The notes beneath the pieces were generated by a model. That model was not told where the DNA came from. It did not search any database and was given only the letters and a program-made list of their open reading frames with translations. The translations under genes and the position numbers were made by a program. Positions 128 to 37,211 of a DNA stretch of 37,211 nucleotides are shown here, piece by piece; within the stretch, counting starts at the first letter, position 1, and each line of letters starts with the position of its first letter. The DNA comes from a virus (Duplodnaviria > Caudoviricetes). The stretch is taken from positions 1 through 37,211 of IMG/VR virus record IMGVR_UViG_3300036985_004314; one strand, written 5' to 3'.

Positions 128-978
128 TTGGCACGATGTTTAACGGGCAAGCCGTTTCTGGCCAGAAGCAACTTTTGCAGGTCCTGCGCTCGTCGGTGCA
201 GGATGACAATGCCTTCCACGCAATCCTGCAGCAGATTCGCCCAAACAGCCCGGCTACCGAAGTTGCTGGGCGTTTCATGGTCATGAACGACCCCAAGCGC
301 GTTGGTGGCGCGTGGTGGTGGAGTGACGAACGCCAGTACAAGCCTGCAGACGTTGCCGGCACCATCCTTGAAGGTGAGCGCCTGCTCAACCCCATAAAGG
401 CCGACAAGGCCGACAATGGCAAGGGCGGATTCCCGATGCCAAGCGATACCGAACTGCGTGCTGATTTTTCGGACGCTGTTGGTGCCGCGTTTGGCAGCAA
501 CGCTGATGGAGCAAATTCTGCGTATCAGGCCTACAAGGCATACTACGCTGGACGCGCTGCTCGTGACGGAGAATACAGCGGACTAATTTCAAACAAGATT
601 TCAAAAGAAGCGCTGGCTGCCGTGTTGCCCGGCGTGTCGGATGTCAACGGCAAAGGCGAAGTGTTTCGGCCCTACGCAATGGGCGAAGATACTTTTGAAA
701 ACACTCTGCAAGAAGGGTACGGAGCGTTCATGCAGCAACAAGGTTTGGCCGGAACCCAGATTGATAATTTTAACGCATGGAAAGTAATGGCACTTCCAAA
801 TAATCGCTATGCATTTCTTGCTGGTGATTTCTTGCGATACGTGTCTGGCCCCAACAAGGGGCAGGCTTACATCGTTGATATGAGCGTAGCTCCCTCGTCT
901 GCCGGCCGCATCAACCGTGCGCCTGCTGTTGCTCCAGCTGCGCCAGCCGCGCCATCTACTGTGAGGGTGGCTAAGTGA
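1..978 (+). CDS. C-terminal part of the internal virion/ejection protein with lytic transglycosylase that starts at 35486 and wraps the contig end
   Basis: ATG 22 corresponds to ATG 37106, which is in frame with ATG 35486 (1620 nt apart); stop at 976-978. Confidence 0.9.
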   Translation, partial: NFQDSKAMSEELASRVGLATTMRDSYFANREMKLLTNNEAEALGTMFNGQAVSGQKQLLQVLRSSVQDDNAFHAILQQIRPNSPATEVAGRFMVMNDPKRVGGAWWWSDERQYKPADVAGTILEGERLLNPIKADKADNGKGGFPMPSDTELRADFSDAVGAAFGSNADGANSAYQAYKAYYAGRAARDGEYSGLISNKISKEALAAVLPGVSDVNGKGEVFRPYAMGEDTFENTLQEGYGAFMQQQGLAGTQIDNFNAWKVMALPNNRYAFLAGDFLRYVSGPNKGQAYIVDMSVAPSSAGRINRAPAVAPAAPAAPSTVRVAK

Positions 979-3900
979 GTTCGCTCTATGGCATGTCGGC
1001 AGAAGCCGAAGACGAATTGCTTAATCAGCCGCGGGGTGAACTAGACCTCAATCAATTTAAGCCAAACTGGTACGGCGGATTAGCGACTGCTCCGTTCACT
1101 GGTGTTGGTGCGATTGTAAGCGACATAACCCTTCCTATTGGTGATGCTTATGCATCAACGGTGGTGCGTCCGTTTTATCAAACGGTAGATGCCGTGCTTG
1201 GCACAGAGTACGCAGGGCCGGTTACGCAGAACACGCGCCGCATGGCGTTGGAATTCAGCAAGCTTACTTCGCCTGACCCAACTACTTCAGGTGCTCTGGC
1301 GCAGGTCATTCATTCGCTGGTAAACGTAGTTCCAGAAGTAATGCTTGGCGGCCCTGCAGTGGCTGCGTCTTTGCAGGGCTACAAGGCTACGCGCATGAGC
1401 GCAGACCAAGGCTTGAGCGAACCTGTTGCGCTGGGCCTTGGCGCAATCACCGGAGCCACTACGTGGGCCGGCATGAAAATTCCAAACGTGCTGGCTCCCA
1501 AGCTAAGCACAAGCGTTAACGCGGCGCTGTCAGCGTCCGCAAACGCGGGCGTTGGAGTTGTTCAGCGTGGAACAATTGGCGAGTATTTGCGGGCCACCGG
1601 CTATCCCGAGATGGCCGAACAGTACAAGGCCATGGACACCACGTCCGTTGTAACGGACCTCATTCTTGGTGCGGCCTTTGGCGGCTATGAGTCTTACCAG
1701 AACCACAAGGTACAGGCGCAACGTCAGGCCCTTATCGACGCGGCCATGACGGCCATGCATGACCGCCACCGCACGCTTGAGACCGCGCCGGGCATCCCGC
1801 TTGACCCGGCAACCCGGCAGGTTCACGCGGACTACATGGCACGCCTGATGGAGGCCGAGCTTAACGGCGAAGAGCCGCCGCCGGTTCCGCCCGAGCTAGT
1901 GGGCGACGGGTTCCTCGCTGACCCCGACATCACCGCCGCTCGCGACGAGATTGGCGTAGCCGTGCGCCGGCACCTTGGAGAACTTGGCGAGATTGAAACC
2001 GAGCTTGCTGCTCGCGGCTTGCCGACTGACCCTGAGCTTTACAGCGTCACGCCCAACAACCGTTCCGTGCTGGACCGCGACCCCATCATGCAGGACGCCG
2101 CCCAGCGGCTGAAGGCCGGCGAGATTACCGGCTCTGAGTACCGTCGCATTGCCGACGAGCGCAAACCGGTGCTGCCGTATGAGAAGGTGCCAGAGCCTGC
2201 AACTACCGCAGACCTGCAGCGCGGCCTGACAATTGACAAGCAGCCGCGTATTAACGTGCCAGATACCCTAGAAGAGGGACATCCGGTTGGGTTGCGGCTA
2301 GACATTCCGGCCTACACAAATCACGGAGTGTGGGTTGTCTCGGTCCATGAAAAGCAGTCTGGCTGGAATGCGGGTCCGTCAATTGGCTACACGCCGGCTG
2401 CTGCCGCCACGAATGTAACGCTTGGGGTTCGAGACACCGGAGCCATGCATACGGCGACTGGCGGACAGAAGGCACCCTTTGCCGTGATGAAGGGTAGCTG
2501 GAAACCCATAACGCCGGCACAGGCCAAGGCCCTTGCTAAGCGTGCGCTGAAAGACCCGGCATGGCGACAGATTGGCATGGACCCCACGCGGCGTGCGTTC
2601 TTCTATGACCGCAAGACCATGCAGCCTATCGTGGCCGCCGACGAAGTAGTGCAAATTGGCCCGCTCGTGCTTGGCAAGAACGTGACCTACGGCAAGGCTG
2701 ATGACCATGTTTTTAGCATCGTGGGCGAGCCGGCTGCCCGCATCGCTGCCCGCGTTGCAGAACGCCCGCCTGTTCGTTTTACTGACCGCGTGCGTGGTTT
2801 GCTGGACCGCTGGAAAGAAGATGGCGACACCCGCAAGTTGCTCGACGAGCTTGTGCGCCTTGACGCAGACCTAGAAACCCGCGTTGCAAGCAACGAGGCC
2901 AAGCGCAACGCTGAACCCGTGCGCGGCGAACTGTGGGTGCGCGAGCGCTTTATGCGTGCTGAGCGCAACGGCGAGATATCGCCTGCTGCTCACAACCTTG
3001 TGAAGTGGTTGCTTAACAAAAACCCGGCGCTGGTAACTGACCTTGCCTTGTCATTCAGAACCAAGGGCGGAGACGCCGGAAGCTACAACCCGGCCAAACG
3101 CCTTGCCACCATCTTTAGCACTCGCGCCAATGAGTTGACCGCGGTGCACGAGGTGCTGCACCACATTGAGCGCATGCTTCCGGAAAAGGTGCGCGGCGCT
3201 ATCCGTCAAGCGTGGCTCAAGGACTTGCAGTCTCAATACGACCTTGCAAGCGAGGCCGGTGACGCCCTTAAGGTCAATGCAATTGATGACGCGCTTCGCG
3301 CTGCTGCTGGTGACCGCCAAGCATTTGACCGGGTTGCCAATCAGATTCGCAAGGGCGAACTGCCTGCCGACTTCTACCAGAACATGAACCCTAGCGAGTA
3401 CTGGGCCGAGAACGCTAGCCGCCTTGTGCAGCAACGTGCCGGCCGTGACGGCTGGGTGGCTGAGCTTAAGCAGTGGATGACCGAGTTCCTGCAGAAGGTG
3501 CAGGAGTTCTTTGGCGTCAGCAACAAGGCCGCTATCATTCGTGGTCTTAAAGCTGCTATTGAATCTGACGGCGCTATTCGTGGCCGCATGTTGTCTGCGC
3601 TTGGCGATGACTTCAAGCAAAACGCCATGCCGTTTGACGGAAAGGAAGTTGCTCGGACTCCGCTGGCTGATGGCACTACGCGCATCATAGTTGATGGCGT
3701 TGAGCGTTCTGCGCTAAACAGCGATGGCCGACCAATTCATTGGAGCGAGGAAGGCACCCGCAACTTCTGGCGCTGGTTTGGCAACAGCAAGGTGGTGGAC
3801 GCCGAAGGTCGCCCGCGTGTCATGTACCACGGCAGCGACGCCAAAGACTTTGCGTCATTTAACAAGGGCTCGTACTTTTCGTCTTCGGCTGAAGAAGCCG

Positions 3901-6900
3901 GCGCTTATGCATTCCCGTATGATTTTATGCGGCGCGAAAAAGGCCTAAAAAAGTACACGCTTGTAGAAGGACCGGCCTCGCTTATTGGCACCAAGGTTCA
4001 GTACGCTGGTATTCTTGATGACGCCATAGAATACTTCAAACCAAAAAACGGTGACGTTGTAGCAACCGACAACGGCGTCTACCGCAAGAACGGAAAGAAC
4101 TGGGACGCTTTTACAAACATTGACGTTGAATACGGCAGTGGAGATTTCAGCAACGGCGAAACCTTTATTACGCTAAAAGCCGGAGACGGAGCTGCTGCAA
4201 AAGAACACGTTGATTACTATGTTAACTTTGTCACCAAGAAATACACCGGCGGAGTTGGTGGCCGCGTTGTTGCTGCGTATTTAAAGCTGGACAACCCCGC
4301 AGAGGTAGAGCCGTTTAAAGCAAACCTTCTTGGCTTTCGTCTAGGCGCAACTGAAGAAAGTGTAAAGGCTGAAATACAAAAGCAAAAAGACAAGGGCTAT
4401 GACGGCATTGTCACGCAAAGCGACGAGGCCACCGCCATCTTTGAAGTTGCCGAAGACCTTGGTGGCATTCCTGACCAATACGTTATTTTTGATGGCAAGC
4501 AGGCAAAGTCAGCCGTTGGCAACCGCGGCTCGTTTGATGCAGCCAATCCTGACATGTTGCTGCAGCCGGCATGGCACGGCAGCCCGCATCGCTTCCAACG
4601 CTTTAGCTTGGACTTCATGGGCACCGGCGAAGGCGAGCAGGCGTTTGGTTGGGGCTTGTACTTTGCAGAAAAGCGAGCAACTGGCGAGTACTATCGTGAA
4701 ACGCTTGGAGGAAAGGGCCTTTTATTTGACGGCCAAGAATACGACCCTGCTAACGCATCGCATATTGCGGCAAACCAGATGCGTACTTTTAAAAACAGCC
4801 GCAGAAATGCGGTTCGTTATCTTGAAAAAATCATTGACATAGCAAGAACTCAAGAACGAAAAAACATCTATCAACAAGCTATTGACATCATAGAAAGTGC
4901 CGATACGTTTGTTAAAATTACAGAACAACAAGGCCAGCTTTACGGCGTTGACATTCCTGACAATGCTGTAAACCGCATGCTGTTGTGGGACAAGCTGTTT
5001 GATGAGCAGCCCGAGGGCGTGCGCTTAGCCTTGGAAGGAATAATTGAAGAGGTTCGTGGCGCTGACGTTTACGGCATGCCGTTTGCAAACCCAAAGGCCG
5101 GCATTGGCCGGTACTTTTACGCGGCTCTTCAATCTAAGCTTGGAAGTCACAAGGCAGCATCTCAATACCTTGCTGAGATTGGCATTCCCGGCAACAAATA
5201 TCTTGACGGTTTTTCTCGCGCAGAAGGCGAAGGCACGTATAATTACGTGCTCTGGGACGAAGCCGTCATCAACGAGATGAACGACACCGTCGAAACGCAC
5301 TACAGCGTTGTGCCAGATAAGGAGAGTGGAAGTGACTTACGACCCGAACGCTCCGGAGACGGAGGAAGACAGTATTCGAGCCGAGGCCTTGCGCCGCTTG
5401 ATGGTGCGCCGCAGGTTCGGGGGGCAACCGGTCCAATCCCCAAGCTCGTCTCCGTCGCAGAACGATTTGCCGCAGCAAACCGAATCCTACTCCGCCGACA
5501 AGCCGAGTATGTAATTGTAGACGAAGCGTTTGCTCGTCGGCTTGCTAAAGCATACGAAGACATGCCGCACGCGCCGAATGACCCGGTAGTGCGCGAAGCT
5601 TACGAAAACCTTGCGCGTCAGACCACGGCGCAGTATCGCGCTCTTGAAGAGGCCGGCTATAAGTTCTGGTTCTTTGACGAGACCAACGACCCGTATGGCG
5701 GCAACCCCATGAATGCCATGCGGGACTTGCGTCAAAACGAAAGAATGGCGGTGTTCTCCACCAAGGCCGGCTTTGGTACAGGCAATGAATTTGACCCAAC
5801 CGGAAATCCCTTGCTTGCCGAAACCGGCATCATGTGGCCAAACGGCAGCCCTGATGGCCCGCTTGTTCCGGTGCTTGCCAACGACTTGTTCCGCGCCGTG
5901 CATGATGCCTTTGGCCACGGGCTTGAGGGCGCAGGCTTCCGTGCGCAGGGCGAAGAGAATGCATGGCAGGCTCACGCTCGCCTGTTTACTGGCAGCGCCG
6001 TGGGTGCCATCACCTCAGAGACTCGCGGCCAAAATAGCTGGCTGAACTACGGGCCTTATGGCGAAGCAAACCGCGCCGCTAAAATTGAAGACACCGTATT
6101 TGGCGACCAGAAAACCGGCCTGATGCCAGAGTGGACGTGGACGGAGAACGTGGCCGGCGACATGACGCCAGAGCCTGAGCTGCTATCTGTCCTGCCAGAG
6201 CCGCCGCAGACCGCGGTAAGCCGGTTGCTGCGTCGTTCCGCAGAAAGCGAGAACCGCACGGGCATCGTAATTGGCGGCAGGCCGGGCGAGTTTGGCTGGT
6301 CATTCACGAATCGCGATGCGGTTCCGTCTCCCATCCAACACCCGGTGGTTCGTGGCCCGCGTTTAGAAAAGATTGCGCCGCTGGTTCACGGCATCTTGTC
6401 TTCGCAGGGTTTAAAAAAGCTAGCAAAAGACTTGTTTGGTATCAGTGACCTGACTGTTCGCCAGATTGAAGGCACGTGGAAAGGGGCCGCGGAGCCGTCC
6501 TACGTGCTTCATTCGAAAACCATGACTGACGCGCAGGCCAACAAGCTTGGCCGCCTGCTGGGCTTTGCTTTTTCTCAAGACTCGGTAATTGTCACCAAGC
6601 ACTCGCCTGACCTTGCCGAAGGTCGCTCGACCCTGTACCTCGGCACTGGAAAAAAGCTGACCTCTGAGCAGGTCAATGTCATAATGAAAGCCGCTCGAGA
6701 GCGCAAACTTGACCTGTCCACGTCGGCAGATGGCACCGCCGTAAAGTTTATGCATTTTGGCGAAGAAGCCGACCTTGCCGAATTCATGGACAAGGTTGGG
6801 GAAATTGCAGAGGTTGCCGGGACTAAGCCCCCGGTGCACGTAAGAACGCAAGGAGACCAGCACAATGCCGCGCAATATCTCGATGGAGAAAGCGGAGCAG

Positions 6901-8636
6901 ATGGCACGGGACAGGGGCTTCTCGGTAGCGAGCAAGACCGACCCACTGTACTCGGAAGGATATTCGATAACCTTGTCATCCCGTACGCCAAGGCAGTCGG
7001 CGCAGAAGGATATCGTCTCTCTCCCCAGCTTTTCGGAAAGCGATTTGGACTCAGCAAAGCCGAAACTCAACTTCTTGCAGAACGACTGATACCGCAAGAC
7101 GGAGCGTCTCGCTCTACTGTTGACCTGATGTCCGGCAAAGAAAAGCTGGAGGTCCTGAACACTGGGCAAAAAGGCAAGCCCAACATCACCGACGTTATGT
7201 GGGCCCTGCAGAATCGCGCTGCTAAGTTTGGCTTGATTATGCCGGGCGATTATTCGCCCAAGGCCATGAAGGCTATCGGCAGCGCTATCGTTGATGAAGT
7301 TGCGTACCACGTAAAGAACTCGCTGAAGTCAGCCATTGGCTGGTATGACGCTGCTCTGAAAAACGCAAAGACTGAGTACGACAAAATTCTCCCTGAGATT
7401 CAGCGTGACCCCAACAAGGGCATGTTGTTTGATGCGCTGCTTGGCATCACCTCTCAGGGCAATAACGTATTTGACAATTCCATCTTTGCGGTTCGCATTT
7501 TTGAATTGGTAAGGGACGGCGCGTACACCATCAGCGAGGCCGTCAAGATTCTGGCCAGCACGTTTGGCGACAAGACCGGGCAGATTGAAGCTAACGTCTT
7601 GAAGCTGGAGCACTTGCTCAACGTCAACGGCTATGACCGCATGCGCTCGCTGTTCAATACCACAATGACGGTAAGCGAATGGAACGCTAAGCTTCGTCGC
7701 GACCCAACTTTGTTTGGGCTTGATGGCAAAGCATTGAAGGTTAAAGGACAAGCCCAGCAGAAGGTAACTGGGTGGATGGTGTTTGGCCCGAAGATTGGCT
7801 CGTTCATCAACAACCTGCACGGCGACTACTCCACCTTGACGGCGGACCTTTGGTTCAGCCGCACATGGAATCGCCTGTTAGGCTTTATGTTTACGCACGA
7901 GCCCATGCTTGAGGCCAAACAGTATCAGGAGTTTAAGGACGCAATGCAGGCGGAGTACTACCGCAGCACTGATGCCAAGACTCAGAACGGCAAGCCCGTG
8001 ATGAAGAAAGGCAAGCCGGAACCGTGGCTAAATGGCGAAGACATTACGCACCTGACGCCTGAAGAATTCAGCGCGTTGCTCAACGAGCCAGAGCAATTGC
8101 TTGAGCTTGCTCGTCAACTTGAATCCACGTATCGCAATACCGGATACAAGCAAAAGACGGACTTGCGCCGGCGCGCCAAGAACTGGATTGAAAGCCGCGA
8201 GAACGTGCAGGAACTTCCTCGCACTGGACGCGAGCGTGCATTCCAGCAAAAGACCGTAGAGTGGGCTCAGAAACAATTGCGCAAGATGGGCCTTGATATC
8301 ACGGTGGCTGACATTCAAGCCGCACTGTGGTTCCACGAAAAAGAACTGTTTGACAAGATGGGCGTGGCAAGCAAGAAGGCCAAGCCGGCTGACTACGCTG
8401 ACGCTGCTCGCGAGACTGTCAAGAAGTACATTCGGGGCGAACTGTTCTGGGTGGAAAGCAAGAAGCAATTTATCGGCGGTCTTGACGGCAAGTACCTTGG
8501 CACTCGCGTGCCAGACGAGAATGGTCGCCTTGTGGTTGCCGGCAAAATGATTGAAGCTGCCGATGCTGAAGTGAAGACTGCAGAGCAGGAATCACCTAAG
8601 TTTGAAGAAGCCGTCAAATGCGAATTAAGGGGTTGA
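975..8636 (+). CDS. Giant polyvalent internal virion (ejection) protein, 2553 aa, with multiple enzyme-like domains
   Basis: Sits between two ejection proteins; Ala/Gly-rich hydrophobic N-terminus; motifs HEVLH...SEYWAE, WFGNSK...YHGS...SYFS, AWHGS...GTGEGEQAFGWGLYF, AVHDAFGHG, GTWKGAAEPS...QDSV, GPKIGSFINNL...TADLW...QAALW. Confidence 0.85.
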   Translation: MSSLYGMSAEAEDELLNQPRGELDLNQFKPNWYGGLATAPFTGVGAIVSDITLPIGDAYASTVVRPFYQTVDAVLGTEYAGPVTQNTRRMALEFSKLTSPDPTTSGALAQVIHSLVNVVPEVMLGGPAVAASLQGYKATRMSADQGLSEPVALGLGAITGATTWAGMKIPNVLAPKLSTSVNAALSASANAGVGVVQRGTIGEYLRATGYPEMAEQYKAMDTTSVVTDLILGAAFGGYESYQNHKVQAQRQALIDAAMTAMHDRHRTLETAPGIPLDPATRQVHADYMARLMEAELNGEEPPPVPPELVGDGFLADPDITAARDEIGVAVRRHLGELGEIETELAARGLPTDPELYSVTPNNRSVLDRDPIMQDAAQRLKAGEITGSEYRRIADERKPVLPYEKVPEPATTADLQRGLTIDKQPRINVPDTLEEGHPVGLRLDIPAYTNHGVWVVSVHEKQSGWNAGPSIGYTPAAAATNVTLGVRDTGAMHTATGGQKAPFAVMKGSWKPITPAQAKALAKRALKDPAWRQIGMDPTRRAFFYDRKTMQPIVAADEVVQIGPLVLGKNVTYGKADDHVFSIVGEPAARIAARVAERPPVRFTDRVRGLLDRWKEDGDTRKLLDELVRLDADLETRVASNEAKRNAEPVRGELWVRERFMRAERNGEISPAAHNLVKWLLNKNPALVTDLALSFRTKGGDAGSYNPAKRLATIFSTRANELTAVHEVLHHIERMLPEKVRGAIRQAWLKDLQSQYDLASEAGDALKVNAIDDALRAAAGDRQAFDRVANQIRKGELPADFYQNMNPSEYWAENASRLVQQRAGRDGWVAELKQWMTEFLQKVQEFFGVSNKAAIIRGLKAAIESDGAIRGRMLSALGDDFKQNAMPFDGKEVARTPLADGTTRIIVDGVERSALNSDGRPIHWSEEGTRNFWRWFGNSKVVDAEGRPRVMYHGSDAKDFASFNKGSYFSSSAEEAGAYAFPYDFMRREKGLKKYTLVEGPASLIGTKVQYAGILDDAIEYFKPKNGDVVATDNGVYRKNGKNWDAFTNIDVEYGSGDFSNGETFITLKAGDGAAAKEHVDYYVNFVTKKYTGGVGGRVVAAYLKLDNPAEVEPFKANLLGFRLGATEESVKAEIQKQKDKGYDGIVTQSDEATAIFEVAEDLGGIPDQYVIFDGKQAKSAVGNRGSFDAANPDMLLQPAWHGSPHRFQRFSLDFMGTGEGEQAFGWGLYFAEKRATGEYYRETLGGKGLLFDGQEYDPANASHIAANQMRTFKNSRRNAVRYLEKIIDIARTQERKNIYQQAIDIIESADTFVKITEQQGQLYGVDIPDNAVNRMLLWDKLFDEQPEGVRLALEGIIEEVRGADVYGMPFANPKAGIGRYFYAALQSKLGSHKAASQYLAEIGIPGNKYLDGFSRAEGEGTYNYVLWDEAVINEMNDTVETHYSVVPDKESGSDLRPERSGDGGRQYSSRGLAPLDGAPQVRGATGPIPKLVSVAERFAAANRILLRRQAEYVIVDEAFARRLAKAYEDMPHAPNDPVVREAYENLARQTTAQYRALEEAGYKFWFFDETNDPYGGNPMNAMRDLRQNERMAVFSTKAGFGTGNEFDPTGNPLLAETGIMWPNGSPDGPLVPVLANDLFRAVHDAFGHGLEGAGFRAQGEENAWQAHARLFTGSAVGAITSETRGQNSWLNYGPYGEANRAAKIEDTVFGDQKTGLMPEWTWTENVAGDMTPEPELLSVLPEPPQTAVSRLLRRSAESENRTGIVIGGRPGEFGWSFTNRDAVPSPIQHPVVRGPRLEKIAPLVHGILSSQGLKKLAKDLFGISDLTVRQIEGTWKGAAEPSYVLHSKTMTDAQANKLGRLLGFAFSQDSVIVTKHSPDLAEGRSTLYLGTGKKLTSEQVNVIMKAARERKLDLSTSADGTAVKFMHFGEEADLAEFMDKVGEIAEVAGTKPPVHVRTQGDQHNAAQYLDGESGADGTGQGLLGSEQDRPTVLGRIFDNLVIPYAKAVGAEGYRLSPQLFGKRFGLSKAETQLLAERLIPQDGASRSTVDLMSGKEKLEVLNTGQKGKPNITDVMWALQNRAAKFGLIMPGDYSPKAMKAIGSAIVDEVAYHVKNSLKSAIGWYDAALKNAKTEYDKILPEIQRDPNKGMLFDALLGITSQGNNVFDNSIFAVRIFELVRDGAYTISEAVKILASTFGDKTGQIEANVLKLEHLLNVNGYDRMRSLFNTTMTVSEWNAKLRRDPTLFGLDGKALKVKGQAQQKVTGWMVFGPKIGSFINNLHGDYSTLTADLWFSRTWNRLLGFMFTHEPMLEAKQYQEFKDAMQAEYYRSTDAKTQNGKPVMKKGKPEPWLNGEDITHLTPEEFSALLNEPEQLLELARQLESTYRNTGYKQKTDLRRRAKNWIESRENVQELPRTGRERAFQQKTVEWAQKQLRKMGLDITVADIQAALWFHEKELFDKMGVASKKAKPADYADAARETVKKYIRGELFWVESKKQFIGGLDGKYLGTRVPDENGRLVVAGKMIEAADAEVKTAEQESPKFEEAVKCELRG

Positions 8637-16926: not shown

Positions 16927-17285
16927 TAGAAGCCCCTCTTGCGGTTGACCGCGCTAACCACGAGGTCCTTAATGCGGGCCTCGGACGTGAGCCGCACCTC
17001 GTTCATGATGGCCATGCCGAGCCGAAGCGCGGCGCAGTGCGCATCGACGAACGTATCGTCATCGCGCAGGCCTTCGACGAGGTTGCTGAAAGCATCGTCA
17101 AGCACCGCGTTGTCGGTGGCCTCGACTACGTCGTACATGGAGCCCAGCTTCAGCCGGGCGTAGTCGGCAATCAGGTGGCCGTGGACCCGCACCTGCTTGG
17201 CTTCGACCTTGCCTACGGCCGGCAAGGTGTCGAGGCTGTTCAGGATGGTGTTGGCAATCAACTGGTCAATGCTGTTGGAATTCAT
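16926..17285 (-). CDS. Hypothetical protein
   Basis: AAGGA RBS; tiles the leftward operon. Confidence 0.65.
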   Translation of the reverse strand: MNSNSIDQLIANTILNSLDTLPAVGKVEAKQVRVHGHLIADYARLKLGSMYDVVEATDNAVLDDAFSNLVEGLRDDDTFVDAHCAALRLGMAIMNEVRLTSEARIKDLVVSAVNRKRGF

Positions 17286-17306
17286 GGCGTTTTCCTTTTC
17301 GTTGTG

Positions 17307-17633
17307 TCAGGCAGCGGCCGCAGCGGCGGCGCGGTTCAGGATGGTCTTGAGCGTCTCGTGCTTGCCCTCGGCCAGCAGGATGGTGGCGTTGACCAGCGCC
17401 TGAGCACCGGAGCCGCCGTTCCAGCTGTGCCACATGGACAGGTTGACCGAGGCCTCTTCCTTCATGGCCTCAAGCGCCGCGACCATGAGCGCCTGCGGGT
17501 CGGCGTTCAGCTTGGCAACCATTTCGACGGCGGCGTCGTTGGTGATTTCGTAGGCCAGCAGCAAGTTGCCAAACCAGACCGAGACCTTGGTCCGGTTGCG
17601 CGGCAGCGTGCAGTTGCGAATTTCAAAGTTCAT
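17307..17633 (-). CDS. Hypothetical early protein (MNFEIRN...)
   Basis: Preceded by GAACGGAGAACGGA RBS region and a sigma70-like promoter. Confidence 0.65.
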   Translation of the reverse strand: MNFEIRNCTLPRNRTKVSVWFGNLLLAYEITNDAAVEMVAKLNADPQALMVAALEAMKEEASVNLSMWHSWNGGSGAQALVNATILLAEGKHETLKTILNRAAAAAAA

Positions 17634-17662
17634 TCCGTTCTCCGTTCGTTTCAAGTGTTGCT

Positions 17663-17691
17663 ATCTTAACAACACCCCTTGCCCGTTGCAA
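17663..17691 (-). promoter_or_regulatory. Sigma70-like promoter TTGCAA-17-TAAGAT overlapped by the inverted repeat CACCCCTTGC/GCAAGGGGTG (17673-17697)
   Basis: Exact 17-nt spacer; intergenic; upstream of the ORF starting at 17633. Confidence 0.7.
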
Positions 17692-17718
17692 GGGGTGACT
17701 GAAAGTTTATTGCAGTGC

Positions 17719-18087
17719 TCAGTAGCCGCTGGGTGCCGGCCAGCTACGCACCAGCTCCGCGCTGTGGCGGCGGGCCGCGTCACGCAACTGGTCCGCAAGC
17801 CGCTTAGCGGTGCGCAGGTAGCCCTTGTAGTCGAGCTGAAACGTGCCCGAGCAGATGGCGTAGTACATCTCGGCCGCCTCGCTATCGTCGAGCAGCGTGA
17901 TGGTGGCGGAGGTCTGCCGGCGCTTGCCGCGCATGATGATGTCGCAGGCGTGCGCATCGCTCCAGCGGCCCAGCACACTGATAGCGCCGGCGTTCATGTC
18001 GTTTTGCTGGTCCTCGTAGCTGCCGTACTCCGAGCAGTACAGCTCGGTAGCGGCGGCGTTGGACAAGCGGATGGTGATGGTGTTCAT
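17719..18087 (-). CDS. Hypothetical early protein (MNTITIRL...)
   Basis: CGAACGGAGACCACC-ATG start context. Confidence 0.65.
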   Translation of the reverse strand: MNTITIRLSNAAATELYCSEYGSYEDQQNDMNAGAISVLGRWSDAHACDIIMRGKRRQTSATITLLDDSEAAEMYYAICSGTFQLDYKGYLRTAKRLADQLRDAARRHSAELVRSWPAPSGY

Positions 18088-18109
18088 GGTGGTCTCCGTT
18101 CGAGTTAGC

Positions 18110-18364
18110 TCAGGCCTTGGAAGCGGCACTGAGGTCAAGGTAGATGTCGTAGAGTCGGTCGCGTTCGGCACGGGCGTCGGCTTCTGCGTCGGCGTAAGCG
18201 TCACCAACGCCGCGAGCAGCAGCGTAAGCATCATCGTTGGCAGCGTAATAAATTGAGTCGGCGAAGGCGTAAGCGGCCTTAGCGGCGGCGCGGTTAGCGT
18301 GGTAAATCGCGGTGGCCTTGCTTAGTGCAATCGAGGCGGCAAGGCGGGGGTCGGGCTGGTTCAT
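18110..18364 (-). CDS. Ala/Tyr/Asp-rich small early protein (MNQPDPRL...)
   Basis: CGAACGGAGACCAAC-ATG start context; promoter upstream. Confidence 0.6.
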   Translation of the reverse strand: MNQPDPRLAASIALSKATAIYHANRAAAKAAYAFADSIYYAANDDAYAAARGVGDAYADAEADARAERDRLYDIYLDLSAASKA

Positions 18365-18409
18365 GTTGGTCTCCGTTCGTGCCGGGTGCCAATCACCCGA
18401 CTGAAAGCA

Positions 18410-18458
18410 AGTGTACACGAGTGATTTGCAGTGTGCAATAGGGTGATGGAATTATTTT
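18410..18458 (-). promoter_or_regulatory. Sigma70-like promoter TTGCAC-17-TACACT with AT-rich UP-like tract (repeat copy A)
   Basis: -35 at 18433-18438, -10 at 18410-18415; 18409-18458 is 41/50 identical to 18705-18754. Confidence 0.75.
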
Positions 18459-18462
18459 GTGG

Positions 18463-18660
18463 TTATGCCTTGAGGGCGTACTTGCCCGTGCCGCCGCAGC
18501 CAAAGCAGACGTAAAGGCGACCCGTCTCTTCTTCCTCGCCGTGGTCGCCGTGTCCACCGCAAGACGGGCAGATGTTGGCGTGGGCGTAGTAGGCCTCGAC
18601 GGATTCAACGTGGAGGAGGTCGGTGTACTCGACCCAGTTCTCGATGTTGTTTTTTGCCAT
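18463..18660 (-). CDS. Small zinc-finger protein (DnaJ-type CxxCxG repeats)
   Basis: CPSCGGHG...CFGCGGTG; AACGGAG RBS. Confidence 0.7.
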   Translation of the reverse strand: MAKNNIENWVEYTDLLHVESVEAYYAHANICPSCGGHGDHGEEEETGRLYVCFGCGGTGKYALKA

Positions 18661-18705
18661 GTTCGTCGCTCCGTTTTCTGGCAGCACCGTGCTGCCTTGG
18701 AACGA

Positions 18706-18754
18706 AGAGTACAGGAGTGATTCAGAATGGTCAATAGGGTGATGCAATTATTTT
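18706..18754 (-). promoter_or_regulatory. Sigma70-like promoter TTGACC-17-TACTCT with AT-rich UP-like tract (repeat copy B)
   Basis: -35 at 18729-18734, -10 at 18706-18711. Confidence 0.78.
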
Positions 18755-18767
18755 TCTGATACGCGGT

Positions 18768-18796
18768 TTGCAAGCCCGGTGCAGTTTGGGCAACAT
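18768..18796 (+). promoter_or_regulatory. Rightward promoter TTGCAA-17-CAACAT, probably giving a leaderless transcript
   Basis: 17-nt spacer; ATG 18804 lies 7 nt after the -10 box; no SD present. Confidence 0.55.
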
Positions 18797-18803
18797 GCTG
18801 GGC

Positions 18804-19025
18804 ATGAGCATCAAACCTGCAATTTCACCGGCCCAGATTGTGGTCACCGCGTTCGGTGGCGTGCGAGCCGCGGCCCGCGTTCTGTGCGTGGACCCGTCCT
18901 GCGTTTCGCGCTGGCAGTCCAGCGGGCTGGTGCCTACCAGCCGGCAGCGCCGCATCCTAGAACTGGCGTGGCAGATGGGCATCGACATCACTGCCAACGA
19001 CCTCGTGTTCGGGCGCAACGCATGA
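18804..19025 (+). CDS. Cro/YdaS-like HTH transcriptional regulator
   Basis: FGGVRAAARVL.V..S.VSRW...G.VP pattern; first gene at the divergence point. Confidence 0.8.
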   Translation: MSIKPAISPAQIVVTAFGGVRAAARVLCVDPSCVSRWQSSGLVPTSRQRRILELAWQMGIDITANDLVFGRNA

Positions 19026-19384
19026 ACGACGAGCCCGTGCCGTGGCCACCGAGCCTCAACCACTACTGGCGTCACGTCACCAGTGGGCCGCTTAAAGGTC
19101 GCACGCTTATCAGCGTTGAAGGCAAGAGCTACCGCCGGCAAATCATGGCCATGGCATTGCAGTACCGCTGGCAGCGGTTTGAAGGCGTGCGGCTGGTGGT
19201 AACCATGAAGTGCTCTGCACCAGACAATCGCCGGCGCGACCTCGACAACATGCCCAAGTCCTTGCTGGACGCGCTGGTTCACGCCAAGGTTCTCGAAGAC
19301 GATTCCATCATTGACGAGCTGCATATCATCCGGCTGCCAAGCAGGGCGCTGGGTGCTGTTTTTTTGACCATCACAACGAGGTGA
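19022..19384 (+). CDS. rusA: RusA-family Holliday junction resolvase
   Basis: PWPPSLNHYWR, PDNRRRDLDNMPK.LLDAL, DDS.ID motifs; ATGA overlap with the Cro-like gene. Confidence 0.92.
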   Translation: MNDEPVPWPPSLNHYWRHVTSGPLKGRTLISVEGKSYRRQIMAMALQYRWQRFEGVRLVVTMKCSAPDNRRRDLDNMPKSLLDALVHAKVLEDDSIIDELHIIRLPSRALGAVFLTITTR

Positions 19385-19387
19385 CAC

Positions 19388-19651
19388 ATGGGATACGACA
19401 ACACCAACAGCGGCCTGCTGGCCCGCAACGAGCGCAAGCAAAGCGACACGCACCCCGATTTCACGGGCACCATCAACGTGGACGGCGTGGACTACTGGCT
19501 TTCTGCTTGGGTGAAGGAAGGCAAGGACGGCGGCAAGTTGGCCGGCAAGAAGTTCTTCAGCTTGTCGGTGAAAGCAAAGGAAGGCCAGCAGCCGAAGGCT
19601 AAGCCCGAGCCCGAGCAGCAGGTAGCGTTCGACGATGAAATCCCGTTCTGA
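19388..19651 (+). CDS. Small SSB-like protein
   Basis: HPDFTG.I.V.G..YWLSAW...FFSLSV beta-rich core and acidic DDEIPF tail; GAGGTG RBS. Confidence 0.7.
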   Translation: MGYDNTNSGLLARNERKQSDTHPDFTGTINVDGVDYWLSAWVKEGKDGGKLAGKKFFSLSVKAKEGQQPKAKPEPEQQVAFDDEIPF

Positions 19652-19653
19652 TG

Positions 19654-19682
19654 TTGCATTGCTAGCAACACTCGCGTAGCAT
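19654..19682 (+). promoter_or_regulatory. Sigma70-like promoter TTGCAT-17-TAGCAT containing the palindrome TTGCTAGCAA
   Basis: -35 at 19654-19659, -10 at 19677-19682; predicted start near 19689. Confidence 0.7.
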
Positions 19683-19688
19683 TGCTTT

Positions 19689-19740
19689 GCGTGGCTAGGG
19701 TAGCTCCCGAAAAGCGGTTTTCCGTTCCCGCCTGCCACGC
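19689..19740 (+). ncRNA. Candidate structured small/leader RNA (three-way junction, c4/CI-antisense-like architecture)
   Basis: Outer stem GCGTGGC/GCCACGC; inner hairpins GGG-TAGCT-CCC and GCGG-TTTTCCGTTC-CCGC; 5' end coincides with the predicted transcription start. Confidence 0.6.
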
Positions 19741-19772
19741 GCTTTCTGAACGGCTGCACTAGGACGGACTGC

Positions 19773-20429
19773 ATGAAAATTACCCCGAAGAACTGGGCCC
19801 GGTTCCAGCACTACAACGCCCGCCGGCCGCCGTGGATTAAGCTCCACCGCGGGCTGCTGGATGACTACGCTTTTCACACGTTGCCCCTTGCTAGCAAAGC
19901 GCTAGCACCACTGCTCTGGCTGCTAGCCAGTGAGCAGCAGGACGGTATCATTGAGGCTGAGCCGGCTGCTCTGGCCTTCCGCCTGCGCATCAGCGAGAAG
20001 GACCTCACTGCTGGACTCAAGCCCTTGATTGATAACGGGTTTTTTGAGTCTGCTAGCACGATGCTAGCAAGCTGCACGCAAAATGGGGTCTCAGAGACAG
20101 AGACAGAGACAGAGGGAGAGACAGAGAAAGACATTGGAGGTGCACGCAAGCGTGCCCAACAAATGCCCAAGGGCTGGACCCCGAACGCTCAGCATGCGCA
20201 GCTTGCAGCCACGCTCGGCGTGAACCTCGAGCAGCAGGTCGCCCAGTTCACTGACCACCACACGGCCAAGGGCAGCAAGTTCCTCGACTGGGACGCCGCA
20301 CTGCGCACGTGGCTGCGCAACTCCCAGCGCTTCAGCGCCGGCAAGCAGCGCAACCCGGCACTGGCCCCGAACCGCAGCTTTGCGAACGTCAACTACCGCA
20401 CTGGGGGAAACGACAATGACGCCATCTAA
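19773..20429 (+). CDS. Phage replication initiator protein (lambda O-like role)
   Basis: NW..FQHY...PPWIKLHR N-terminus, ETETETE linker, F.DHH..KG....DW.AA.RTW.RN C-domain; upstream of the DnaC-like gene; internal iterons. Confidence 0.8.
   Translation: MKITPKNWARFQHYNARRPPWIKLHRGLLDDYAFHTLPLASKALAPLLWLLASEQQDGIIEAEPAALAFRLRISEKDLTAGLKPLIDNGFFESASTMLASCTQNGVSETETETEGETEKDIGGARKRAQQMPKGWTPNAQHAQLAATLGVNLEQQVAQFTDHHTAKGSKFLDWDAALRTWLRNSQRFSAGKQRNPALAPNRSFANVNYRTGGNDNDAI
19888..20130. repeat. Putative replication origin: GCTAGC(A) iterons plus a GAGACA purine-rich tandem tract
   Basis: Copies at 19888-19897, 19901-19907, 19921-19927, 20051-20058, 20062-20069; (GAGACA)n at about 20094-20130. 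Confidence 0.6.
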
Positions 20430-21183
20430 CACCGGCACCAGCCTGCAGGTAACCGAGGCCAACTGCCCTATGCACGGCGACTACACTCGCCGCGTGGTCA
20501 TGGTTCTGAACAAGGCAGTGGCCATTGCCGGCTGCCCTGCCTGCCAGTGGGAGCGCAAGGCCGCCCAGCAGGCCCGTGACGAGGCCGAGAGCGAGGGCCG
20601 GCGCGAGGCTGCTGCCCGCGTGGCCGCCAGCCGCTCGGCTATCCCTGAGCGCTTCAGCGAGGCAACCCTTGCCGGCTACGCCGTTACGGTGCCCGAGCAA
20701 CAGACCGCGGTGGACCGCTGCCGCTGGTATCTGGACACGTGGGCGGAGCGCAAGAGGCTTGGCACCAGCATGCTGTTCATTGGCCGCCCCGGCACCGGCA
20801 AGAGTCATCTGGCCTGCGCTATCGCCCGCAACGTGACGCGCCGCGGTGACTCAGCGCTTTACACCACGGTGTCGAGCTTCACCCGTGCCGTGCGCGAGAC
20901 CTACAACGGCGGCAAGAAGACCGAGACGCAGGTGCTGGACAGCTACGCATCGCCCTCGCTGCTGGTGCTCGACGAGATTGGCGCAACCTCGGGTTCGGAC
21001 CACGAGCGCCAGATGCTGTTCGAGCTGGTGAACCAGCGTTACGAGGCCCGCCGGCCGACCCTGCTGGTGTCCAACCTGAACGCCGAGGAAGTCCGCGTGT
21101 TTCTGGGCGAGCGCATCATGGACCGCTTGCGCGACGGCGGCGGCAAGATGCTGCGCATGGACTGGGAGAGCTTTCGCAAATGA
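20416..21183 (+). CDS. DnaC/IstB-like AAA+ helicase loader
   Basis: CPMH...CPAC Zn site, IPERF, Walker A GRPGTGKS, Walker B LLVLDEIG, SNL, RIMDRL. Confidence 0.92.
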   Translation: MTPSNTGTSLQVTEANCPMHGDYTRRVVMVLNKAVAIAGCPACQWERKAAQQARDEAESEGRREAAARVAASRSAIPERFSEATLAGYAVTVPEQQTAVDRCRWYLDTWAERKRLGTSMLFIGRPGTGKSHLACAIARNVTRRGDSALYTTVSSFTRAVRETYNGGKKTETQVLDSYASPSLLVLDEIGATSGSDHERQMLFELVNQRYEARRPTLLVSNLNAEEVRVFLGERIMDRLRDGGGKMLRMDWESFRK

Positions 21184-35485: not shown

Positions 35486-37211
35486 ATGGCTATCCGCATT
35501 GCTCAGTACGACCAGCGTACGACTCCCTCGACTGGCGGGGTGCAGGTATCTGCCCGCGGCGTGCAGGTTTCTGATGCCACCGCACGTGCCACGCAGGGCT
35601 TTGGTCAGGCTATCGGGCAAATGGCCGACGTGCTTGTCAAGAAAGAAGCCGACGATGCGGTAAGCGATGCCGGCAAGAAGGTCAGCGACGCCACCTTGCA
35701 TTGGTCCGAGTACTACCAGAACGCCAGCCAAAACGCTGCGCCGGGTGCGCCAAACTTTACCGGCACGATGCTTACCGAATTTGATACCTACGCGGAAAAG
35801 ACGCTAGAGGGTATCCCTCACCCAGTAGCTCGCAAGGTTGCCTCGCGCAACATGATGAGCCTGCGTGAGAACCTGCAGCTTAAGTCCATGGCGTTCGAGG
35901 CTCAGGCCGGCGTGACTAAGCGCACGGCGGACCTCGAAGGCAGCGTAACCAATTACAGTCAGATTCTGGCCGCGGACCCCACGCAATACGCTTTAGCCGA
36001 AAAGGCGGTGCTCGACCAGATTGCCAACGGCGGGTTTGGCCAGCAAAGCACCGAGATGGCCACTCGCGCCAAGCAGGCATTGAACGTGGCTATGGGCACC
36101 GGCCTCGTGCAACGCGACCCCACGGGCGCGAAGCGGGCGCTTGAGTTTACCTTTGGCATCGCTCAGCCCGTAGCCGCTAAGCCTGAAACGGCGGCCCCTG
36201 TAACCGTCGAAAGCGTGTGGCCCAAGGTGGAGCGTCAGGAGTCCGGCGGCAATCAGAACGCGGTCAGCTCTGCCGGCGCTGTTGGCGTGGCTCAAATCAT
36301 GCCCGACACCGGACCAGCCGCCGCCGCACTGGCCGGCCTGCCGTGGGACGAGCAGAAGTTTAAGACCGACGCCGCCTACAACCGTGCGCTGGGGCAGGCC
36401 TACCTTGCCAAACAGTTAAAAGACTTTGGGTCCATGGACAAGGCGTTGGCCGCCTACAACGCCGGACCCAACCGCCTCCGCAAGGAGCTTGCCAAGGGAG
36501 AGGGCGATTGGCTGAGCAGGATGCCCGCAGAGACGCGCAATTACGTTACCAGCATCTTGGGTGCCCCCGCGGCTAGCGCGGCTCCTGCGGCCCCGCAGAC
36601 GCCTCCTCCGAACCCGCAATACATCGAGTGGGCCAAGCGCCTGACGGTGCAGCAGGCGTCATCGTTCCTGACGGCAGCCGAGTCCGAGGTCAATCGCCAG
36701 CAGGCGGGTGCCCGGTCCAACATCGAGAACGTCATCACCGGCCACATTGCCGGCGCACAGAACGGCGTGGTCCCGGGTCAGCCCCTAACCGAGCAGCAGT
36801 TCACGATGGCCCTTGGGCCGGAGCAGGGCAGCCTGCGCTTTGCCCAGTACCAGCAGCAAATGCAGACGGGCGCTGATATCAATGCCATGAAAACCATGAC
36901 GCCGGTGCAGGCCAAGGCGCTCATTGACCGGGCTGCTCCGCCGGCCAATAGCGATGACCCGCTTTACGCCGGCTATGTGCAGCGTCAGGCCCAGCTTGTG
37001 CAGGCCTATGACCGCGTGCGCACCATGCAGACCGCAGACCCCATTGCCTATGCCATGGAGGTTAGGATTGGCGGCAAGCCGCTGAACTTCCAAGATAGCA
37101 AGGCCATGAGCGAAGAGCTGGCCAGCCGCGTTGGTCTGGCAACCACGATGCGCGACTCGTATTTCGCTAACAGGGAAATGAAGCTGCTCACGAACAACGA
37201 GGCCGAGGCGC
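35486..37211 (+). CDS. Internal virion protein with SLT lytic transglycosylase domain (continues to 978; about 858 aa in total); missing from the supplied ORF track
   Basis: My translation from ATG 35486 is open to the contig end and contains QESGG...AVSSAGAVGVAQIMPDT, ALAAYNAGP and ETRNYV (about 36230-36550). Confidence 0.92.
   Translation, partial: MAIRIAQYDQRTTPSTGGVQVSARGVQVSDATARATQGFGQAIGQMADVLVKKEADDAVSDAGKKVSDATLHWSEYYQNASQNAAPGAPNFTGTMLTEFDTYAEKTLEGIPHPVARKVASRNMMSLRENLQLKSMAFEAQAGVTKRTADLEGSVTNYSQILAADPTQYALAEKAVLDQIANGGFGQQSTEMATRAKQALNVAMGTGLVQRDPTGAKRALEFTFGIAQPVAAKPETAAPVTVESVWPKVERQESGGNQNAVSSAGAVGVAQIMPDTGPAAAALAGLPWDEQKFKTDAAYNRALGQAYLAKQLKDFGSMDKALAAYNAGPNRLRKELAKGEGDWLSRMPAETRNYVTSILGAPAASAAPAAPQTPPPNPQYIEWAKRLTVQQASSFLTAAESEVNRQQAGARSNIENVITGHIAGAQNGVVPGQPLTEQQFTMALGPEQGSLRFAQYQQQMQTGADINAMKTMTPVQAKALIDRAAPPANSDDPLYAGYVQRQAQLVQAYDRVRTMQTADPIAYAMEVRIGGKPLNFQDSKAMSEELASRVGLATTMRDSYFANREMKLLTNNEAEA
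37085..37211. repeat. Terminal direct repeat, copy 2
   Basis: Identical to 1-127. Confidence 0.97.

Follow-up and report, generated by a model that had tools for sequence, protein, structure and literature searches.

A phage int-alpA RNA as a probable cis-acting leader of the replication initiator gene, with one loop and two alternative pairing sites

Introduction

What does a structured RNA of 52 nt do when it lies between a predicted promoter and the replication initiator gene of a phage, and when its loop can pair both with sites just downstream and with the ribosome-binding sites (RBS) of early genes on the other strand? A preliminary description of this locus proposed that a junction RNA of the c4 or CI type acts in cis as a gate for the replication gene and in trans as a silencer of the early cassettes, perhaps as a substitute for a missing CI repressor.

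The window, by which we mean the whole 37,211-bp stretch of DNA analysed here, is a complete phage genome with direct terminal repeats at its ends and with head, portal, terminase, tail and lysis genes. Its leftward early block encodes a RecT-like protein, an exonuclease and small ORFs without assigned function, and its rightward block a Cro-like HTH protein, RusA, an SSB-like protein, the replication initiator (rep, in whose product a DnaT-like domain scores under the Pfam cut-off) and a DnaC-like helicase loader that is likely co-regulated with rep (Table 1). A search of the complete record with PF00589 returned no integrase match, and no CI-type family was seen among the ORFs scanned (sets of 31 and 38, part of the genome's ORFs), where the only HTH proteins were Cro-like and excisionase-like. 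Because no integrase was found in this complete genome, nothing points to a missing CI, and the idea of an RNA substituting for one is not supported; the phage may have a plasmid-like prophage state. Elsewhere in the genome, a 2553-aa virion protein (975-8636) carries a weak endolysin-family stretch at residues 1301-1456 besides several domains of unassigned kind, while the ~1.7 kb at 35500-37211 hold short ORFs only, and those scanned had no Pfam match.

Table 1. Positions of the RNA element, its pairing sites, the neighbouring genes and the early-cassette motifs in the window
Feature	Position	Strand	Basis or remark
Predicted sigma-70-type promoter TTGCAT-17-TAGCAT	19654..19682	+	Sequence pattern
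int-alpA three-way junction, 52 nt	19689..19740	+	Rfam RF02996 and covariation
Helix P1	19689-95/19734-40		Junction helix
Helix P2	19698-700/19706-08		Junction helix
Helix P3	19714-17/19728-31		Junction helix
GAAAA joiner	19709-13	+	Part of int-alpA junction
P3 loop UUUUCCGUUC	19718..19727	+	Variable pairing element
T1, GAACGG, predicted parking site leaving the RBS free	19748..19753	+	6 Watson-Crick pairs with loop; covariation, geometry
T2, GGACGGA	19762..19768	+	7 loop pairs, one G-U; overlaps likely Shine-Dalgarno
Likely Shine-Dalgarno of rep, AGGA	19761-64	+	Overlapped by T2
rep, replication initiator, 218 aa	19773..20429	+	PHROG 26426, E 1e-35; PHROG 1408
DnaC-like helicase loader	20416..21183	+	PHROG 50, E 3e-68; start overlaps rep stop
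Early-cassette RBS GAACGGAGA before 18364	18370..18378	-	Proposed trans target, not supported
Early-cassette RBS GAACGGAGA before 18087	18093..18101	-	Proposed trans target, not supported
GAACGGAGA (17639-47) and second GAACGGA before 17633	17633..17647	-	Proposed trans target, not supported
AACGGAG before 18660	18669..18675	-	Weaker match, 6 Watson-Crick pairs

Results

The element is a new member of a known family, int-alpA (Rfam RF02996), whose covariance model matched it with 49.7 bits against a cut-off of 35.8 and over model positions 1-71 of 71; an Rfam search of the whole record found one copy in the genome. The UA, GAAAA and CU joiners that characterise the int-alpA junction are all present, as judged from the model alignment and from pair counts. 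The c4/CI-type assignment of the preliminary description is thereby replaced, as neither C4 nor isrK matched at the gathering threshold, nor even at E≤10 within 17200-20000. A blastn comparison of the element with GenBank phages gave 31 partial matches, none of them annotated as RNA. Single-sequence folding of 19689-19775 gave z = 0.0, and the junction fold has -19.9 kcal/mol versus -21.0 for the minimum, so that energy alone does not favour the junction. Covariation does, in that 91.7% of cells were paired in a 49-sequence alignment (A1) and compensatory changes occurred in 8 of the 14 junction pairs; none of 500 shuffles reached as high, and slid structures gave 34-51%. The sequences of A1 were hand-chosen from 68, near-duplicates and some poor matches having been removed, and the invariance of CUAG, CGAAAAGCGG and CCGCCUG in it was imposed by the search patterns, as was that of P3. 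In loci found through their protein P3 does covary (GACG/CGUC, GGCG/CGCC and GGUGA/UCACC, for instance). It is because of the covariation that we accept the junction, and the coordinates first proposed for it and for its loop were correct. Upstream of rep in three further loci (L627, L635 and L639) we saw variants with AUAG replacing CUAG, two of which were missed by our search model R1, and the family is therefore wider than the counts given here.

With regard to the promoter, TTGCAT begins at 19654 and TAGCAT at 19677, with the 17-nt spacer previously reported; the sequence was thus as described, while its role as a promoter and a start at about 19689 are predictions from the pattern. A consensus promoter scan placed it below threshold and did not list it. 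A relaxed pattern, TTG[AC]NN-17-TANNNT, had six matches in the genome, of which four are this promoter and three early-cassette promoters. In 11 of 28 loci of a set made of rep orthologues and the window, 12-14 nt separate the end of a -10 hexamer from the CUAG that follows; given that a control window inside rep (+250) matched in 8 of 29, only this positional clustering counts. Among 89 listed homologues a scan for TANNNT 5' of P1 revealed only a broad excess at 1-12 nt; the signal is clearer in the rep-orthologue set. No terminator was found 3' of P1 at the window locus. Two freshwater metatranscriptome runs contain 6-9% of the words; their contigs belong to a related strain and are scattered across the region, one of them covering 19627-19811, and they carry no end or level information and may be DNA.

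The loop was compared with its surroundings in homologues from pattern scans of viral and metagenome contigs, which yielded 89 distinct loops among the matches listed (at least 65 nt of downstream sequence being needed, and row L165 excluded). A loop's own T1 pairs with at least 5 Watson-Crick bp in 75 of these 89 versus 8.8% of swapped loops, its own T2 in 67 versus 15.1% of swaps, and two non-overlapping sites occur in 62 versus 4.2%; 27 of the 89 are without two sites of at least 5 bp, and none of 10,000 permutations reached the mean of either T1 or T2. The homologues are related, and these counts therefore overstate the number of independent events, for which a subset of loops sharing no 5-mer (from 68 listed) corrects in part; there T1 was found in 18 of 19 and T2 in 14 of 18, with swaps at ~5%. 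No seqA-like site was seen upstream, where own loops paired 3.51 bp with the 45 nt in question and swapped ones 3.73 (n = 68 listed). Pooling gave 104 distinct loops among the matches listed; for 54 of them the two sites were both present and an ATG could be called. Spacing in these 54 listed two-site homologues is tight, in that T1 starts 11-21 nt past the junction and the T1-to-T2 distance falls within 11-17 nt in 50. An overlap of T2 with the best Shine-Dalgarno match is seen in 52, and in 41 the T1 and T2 duplexes differ by at most 2 kcal/mol. In the window 7 nt separate the junction from T1 and 21 nt separate it from T2. T1 was found where the preliminary description had it; the second cis target, given there as GACGGA, is also present, and becomes one base longer (GGACGGA) once a G-U pair is allowed. 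One contig (L473) has two copies of the RNA with different loops, each fitting its own downstream sites. Judged from these comparisons, the loop co-varies with the putative sites T1, in the spacer, and T2, at the Shine-Dalgarno sequence of the next gene.

These data also bear on whether the RNA might act on transcription instead, by attenuation after P1 or through Rho access, with loop pairing setting the read-through. The Rfam consensus does have a U-run after P1, at least 5 U in 8 nt are seen in 11 of the 54 listed linkers, and the CI RNA of P4 works by termination according to the portion of PMC4825925 available to us. Most linkers, however, have no U-run, T2 tracks the Shine-Dalgarno sequence in all but two of the 54 listed homologues, and the 68 listed loops showed no upstream counterpart of seqA; we regard control of transcription as highly improbable.

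An independent set of loci was obtained by protein and not by RNA, as the best 80 of 568 relatives from an alignment of Rep. The RNA is present in 42 of these 80 (model R1, E≤0.03), adjoining the rep start in 37 and lying ~200 nt farther upstream in 5. Loop parsing covered 32 of the 43 loci (the 42 plus the window), 11 being left out, and the RNAs carry different loops with matching targets; among 17 distinct loops, that of the window included, T1 was found in 14 and T2 in 14, a result reached by 0 of 10,000 permutations. The proposal of cis gating of rep thus emerges as likely, strongly backed by loop-target covariation in both the homologue and the rep-orthologue sets. Around the listed loci in general, 56 downstream proteins (of 66 ORFs called) were scanned, and they comprised 10 replication initiators, 11 nucleases, 2 methyltransferase/ParB proteins, 2 structural proteins, 4 of unknown families and 27 without a match, with no integrase or AlpA family among the matches shown. 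Initiators and nucleases are plausibly genes whose dose needs limiting.

Two further features of rep and its orthologues were noted on the way. Eight orthologues without int-alpA (L581, L584, L603, L644, L597, L631, L632 and L573) have leaders that are rich in hairpins by eye and fall into at least three groups, which may be further families of rep-leader RNAs. In addition, a palindrome, (T)GCTAGC(A), recurs inside rep at the fixed positions +117, +128, +149, +279 and +290, with window copies at 19889-19927 and 20051-20069 and another in the promoter spacer (19660-19667). GCTAGC makes up codons 40-41 of rep in 65 of the 71 distinct orthologues from the best 80 of 568 relatives, and Ala-Ser dicodons are written in this way in 123 of 224 cases in the 5' part of rep versus 33 of 648 in other ORFs. 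The palindromes inside rep are likely to be origin iterons. The promoter-spacer copy, which was not seen at the same place in the rep orthologues examined, could permit autorepression by Rep.

On the strength of the covariation we consider it quite probable that the int-alpA RNA is a cis leader of rep and works as a two-position translational switch. The transcript would start at P1; T1, being made first, would capture the loop as a pseudoknot and leave the RBS open, so that rep is translated, while T2, near-equal in strength, would compete for the loop, which would block the RBS when resting there. The balance between the two sites would then limit or time the synthesis of Rep and of the coupled loader. 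Candidate triggers are a factor that would bind the conserved UA/GAAAA/CU junction and a second copy of the RNA that would occupy one of the two sites.

A second copy is central to another reading, in which T1 neutralises the RNA's own loop and the copy that binds T2 in trans comes from additional genomes in the cell or from a co-infecting phage with the same loop; if true, this would mean copy-number control or loop-defined exclusion groups in the style of plasmid antisense RNAs and of c4 in P1 and P7. Loops as diversified as the 104 distinct ones listed, each with matched targets, are what specificity groups would predict, the frequent position of the RNA before initiators would suit such sensing, and in I-complex plasmids, as far as the available part of PMC10724649 goes, antisense control of rep translation sets incompatibility. 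Yet full-length leaders would hold their loops parked in cis, UUUU occurs in just 10 of the 54 listed linkers (the linker of the window has no terminator), the tight spacing of the sites suits intramolecular pairing, and the two copies on the L473 contig differ in their loops. We find such self-sensing doubtful, and the cis switch acting within one leader remains our preferred reading.

The early-cassette motif is present as the preliminary description reported, preceding the starts at 18364, 18087 and 17633, the last with a second GAACGGA. GAACGGAGA occurs three times in the genome, each time on the minus strand and 4-5 nt before an early start, whereas in 100 shuffles it averaged 0.24 copies and never exceeded 2, and its duplex with the loop does have the 9 bp with one G-U that were claimed (10 bp at 17633). 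The genome-wide count of the shorter forms was a different matter, as GAACGGA has copies (7 vs 4.0 expected) and so does AACGGAG (5 vs 4.3), neither being enriched. The leaders of 18660 and 18364 are ~82% alike over 50 nt, and in a near-identical relative (L237) these leaders are joined at the RBS/ATG to other ORFs than in the window. The cassettes appear to swap at this point, and the RBS repeats behave like cassette junctions and represent roughly one event, not four. Each of the three early cassettes (17633-18760, minus strand) has its own TTGNNN-17-TANNNT promoter and a hairpin near the RBS, and in L490/L536 an inverted repeat, TCACAACTGTGA, which is probably an operator, lies in three early cassette promoters. 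Similar arrays exist in other phages, where GAACGGAG(ACC) precedes four to five co-oriented small genes (G001:C1 15830-18478, L387; G002:C1 60172-62265, L336). A separate antisense partner of such arrays was sought in G001-G003, with no R1 match in any of the three and no Rfam match in G001 and G002, and folds around other GAACGGA sites revealed nothing convincing by eye. It is possible that a protein or nuclease recognises the recurrent GAACGGAG RBS.

Does the 52-nt RNA, besides its role in cis, also silence the early cassettes in trans through GAACGGAGA, possibly in this lineage only? Several observations would suit this. Of the 89 listed loops, that of the window alone reaches 7 or more Watson-Crick bp at each of the three early start regions; its duplexes with the early RBS, at -11.9 to -12.6 kcal/mol, exceed those with T1 (-7.6) and T2 (-9.4) in strength; L237 shares the loop and carries four AACGGAGA sites, of which three precede different ORFs; and GAACGGAG is rare at starts in general (3 of 1047). 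The relatives, on the other hand, speak against such a regulon. In 39 other listed loci of at least 7 kb, the window being excluded, matches of a loop to its own genome were not above swaps (p 0.05-1.0 over eight settings), and the lowest value, 0.0505 (at least 7 bp, divergent genes), comes from three matches, two of which are one L186 site counted twice. Among 44 other listed loci 2 of 183 start regions paired at least 7 bp versus 0.93 expected, with no locus having two (swap-test p 0.23-0.58). The 22 rep-orthologue loci gave 149 divergent start regions, none of which paired at least 6 bp with the loop of its own locus, where 2.8 were expected (p 0.33-1.0). The start sites in these tests were set mechanically, from an ATG, the ORF length and an anti-Shine-Dalgarno match of at least 4 nt, and some are wrong. 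In none of the three locus sets, then, did the loop co-vary with the early-gene RBS of its genome, and the trans silencing put forward in the preliminary description is not borne out.

Individual loci argue in the same direction. L490 shares the scaffold and has a cassette array of this RBS style, one member being GAACGGAGA, yet its loop pairs only 3-4 bp there; L127, L005 and L067 have AACGGAGA before the first divergent gene, where their loops pair just 3-5 bp. AACGGAG starts are present at least twice in 13 of the 83 loci that were chosen by GAACGGAGACCRNCATG, and the near-identical relative is the only one of the 83 with the RNA within 10 kb. Five GAACGGAGACC starts in one array of G001 (35% complete) and four GAACGGAG starts within 2 kb of G002 (81% complete) come with no RNA by Rfam or R1 in the portions of these genomes available, and L237 also holds a mismatched ACCGGAGA cassette. 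At the window itself no terminator that would free the RNA was found after P1, T1 would occupy the loop in cis, and the U-rich half of the loop pairs with any purine run; this loop ranks first of 45 listed for G-U-inclusive matches to the starts of other phages. A rep orthologue, L634, has GAACGGAG as its own T2, and a loop of the window type can therefore arise for cis reasons. The match of the loop to the early RBS is most likely a by-product, since the loop needs to be complementary to Shine-Dalgarno sequences, and the RBS style GAACGGAG recurs in phages and is multiplied here by cassette duplication; we estimate such a coincidence at about 1-2% per genome, which is not negligible for a common family. 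Because the early-RBS match is specific to one of the 89 listed loops, we still leave a small probability to a regulon peculiar to this lineage, which we otherwise think unlikely.

Discussion

Our results point to a leader RNA whose loop, by covariation, pairs at two places in front of the downstream gene, and this makes the function of int-alpA testable with a few point mutations. They also tie the family to a widespread phage replication initiator, the RNA being present at 42 loci among the best 80 of 568 relatives. Compact and programmable through its loop, of which ~100 natural variants are listed, such a switch would be a new instance of phage replication under RNA control. Co-option of this cis switch as a trans repressor, its loop being tuned to an RBS common to swappable early cassettes, strikes us as improbable; if it were true, one 52-nt RNA would shut the early genes off while gating replication, and newly captured cassettes, being swapped in at the RBS, would come under its control without further change. 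The relatives give no backing to an RNA regulon in place of CI.

The int-alpA motif is reportedly from the work of Weinberg et al. in 2017, and its name presumably implies a position upstream of int or alpA genes. In Rfam it is typed as "Gene; sRNA". The element of the window shares the three-way junction of this family, as its full-length match above the cut-off indicates, and differs in having a replication initiator downstream, which is a matter of context and not a criterion of Rfam membership. The last columns of the RF02996 model reach T1 (loop CCuUua versus 3' uaAgGG) and end before T2 and the Shine-Dalgarno sequence; since the model extends to T1, the original alignment may already have marked the loop-T1 pseudoknot. 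The name int-alpA does not occur in the accessible main text of PMC5737381, while in the parts available of two other papers it is entered in a genome table without a test (PMC12370729) and denotes a gene order (PMC13612085). Neither a two-site switch nor T2 is described in the literature searched, which mostly lacked subscription papers and the Weinberg supplement, so that absence from print is not established; no functional test of int-alpA was found there either, the family being catalogued as a small RNA.

Among RNAs of known function, c4 of P1 and P7 comes close in its logic, for its loop pairs with two downstream target sets and its loops are phage-specific. It is encoded in the operon that it represses, c4-icd-ant (accessible part of PMC8198154), and in this it resembles the window RNA and rep. 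However, c4 is processed and acts in trans, repressing an antirepressor of a temperate phage, whereas the targets in the window are in cis and the search for an integrase there found none. In P4 and Gifsy-1, according to the parts of PMC4825925 and PMC10111431 at our disposal, an operon is likewise controlled by RNA-RNA pairing at its 5' end, with replication genes among those affected in P4, and IsrK of Gifsy-1 is both a leader and a trans RNA. Pairing at the 5' end would be common to these systems and the window, which has no upstream seqA-like target and no C4 or isrK match; in addition, P4 CI leads to termination and IsrK pairs over ~30 nt and activates. In repZ of the I-complex plasmids an activating pseudoknot faces competition from a separate antisense RNA (Inc RNA/RNAI), and a leader peptide also takes part. 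Loop pairing near the initiator RBS sets rep translation there, according to the available part of PMC10724649. Where repZ uses a separate antisense RNA, the window has one loop and two tandem cis sites, an antisense gene not being evident. By analogy, then, the window RNA would work like c4 and the repZ pseudoknot, in that a loop governs access to a nearby RBS, and it is a member of neither system.
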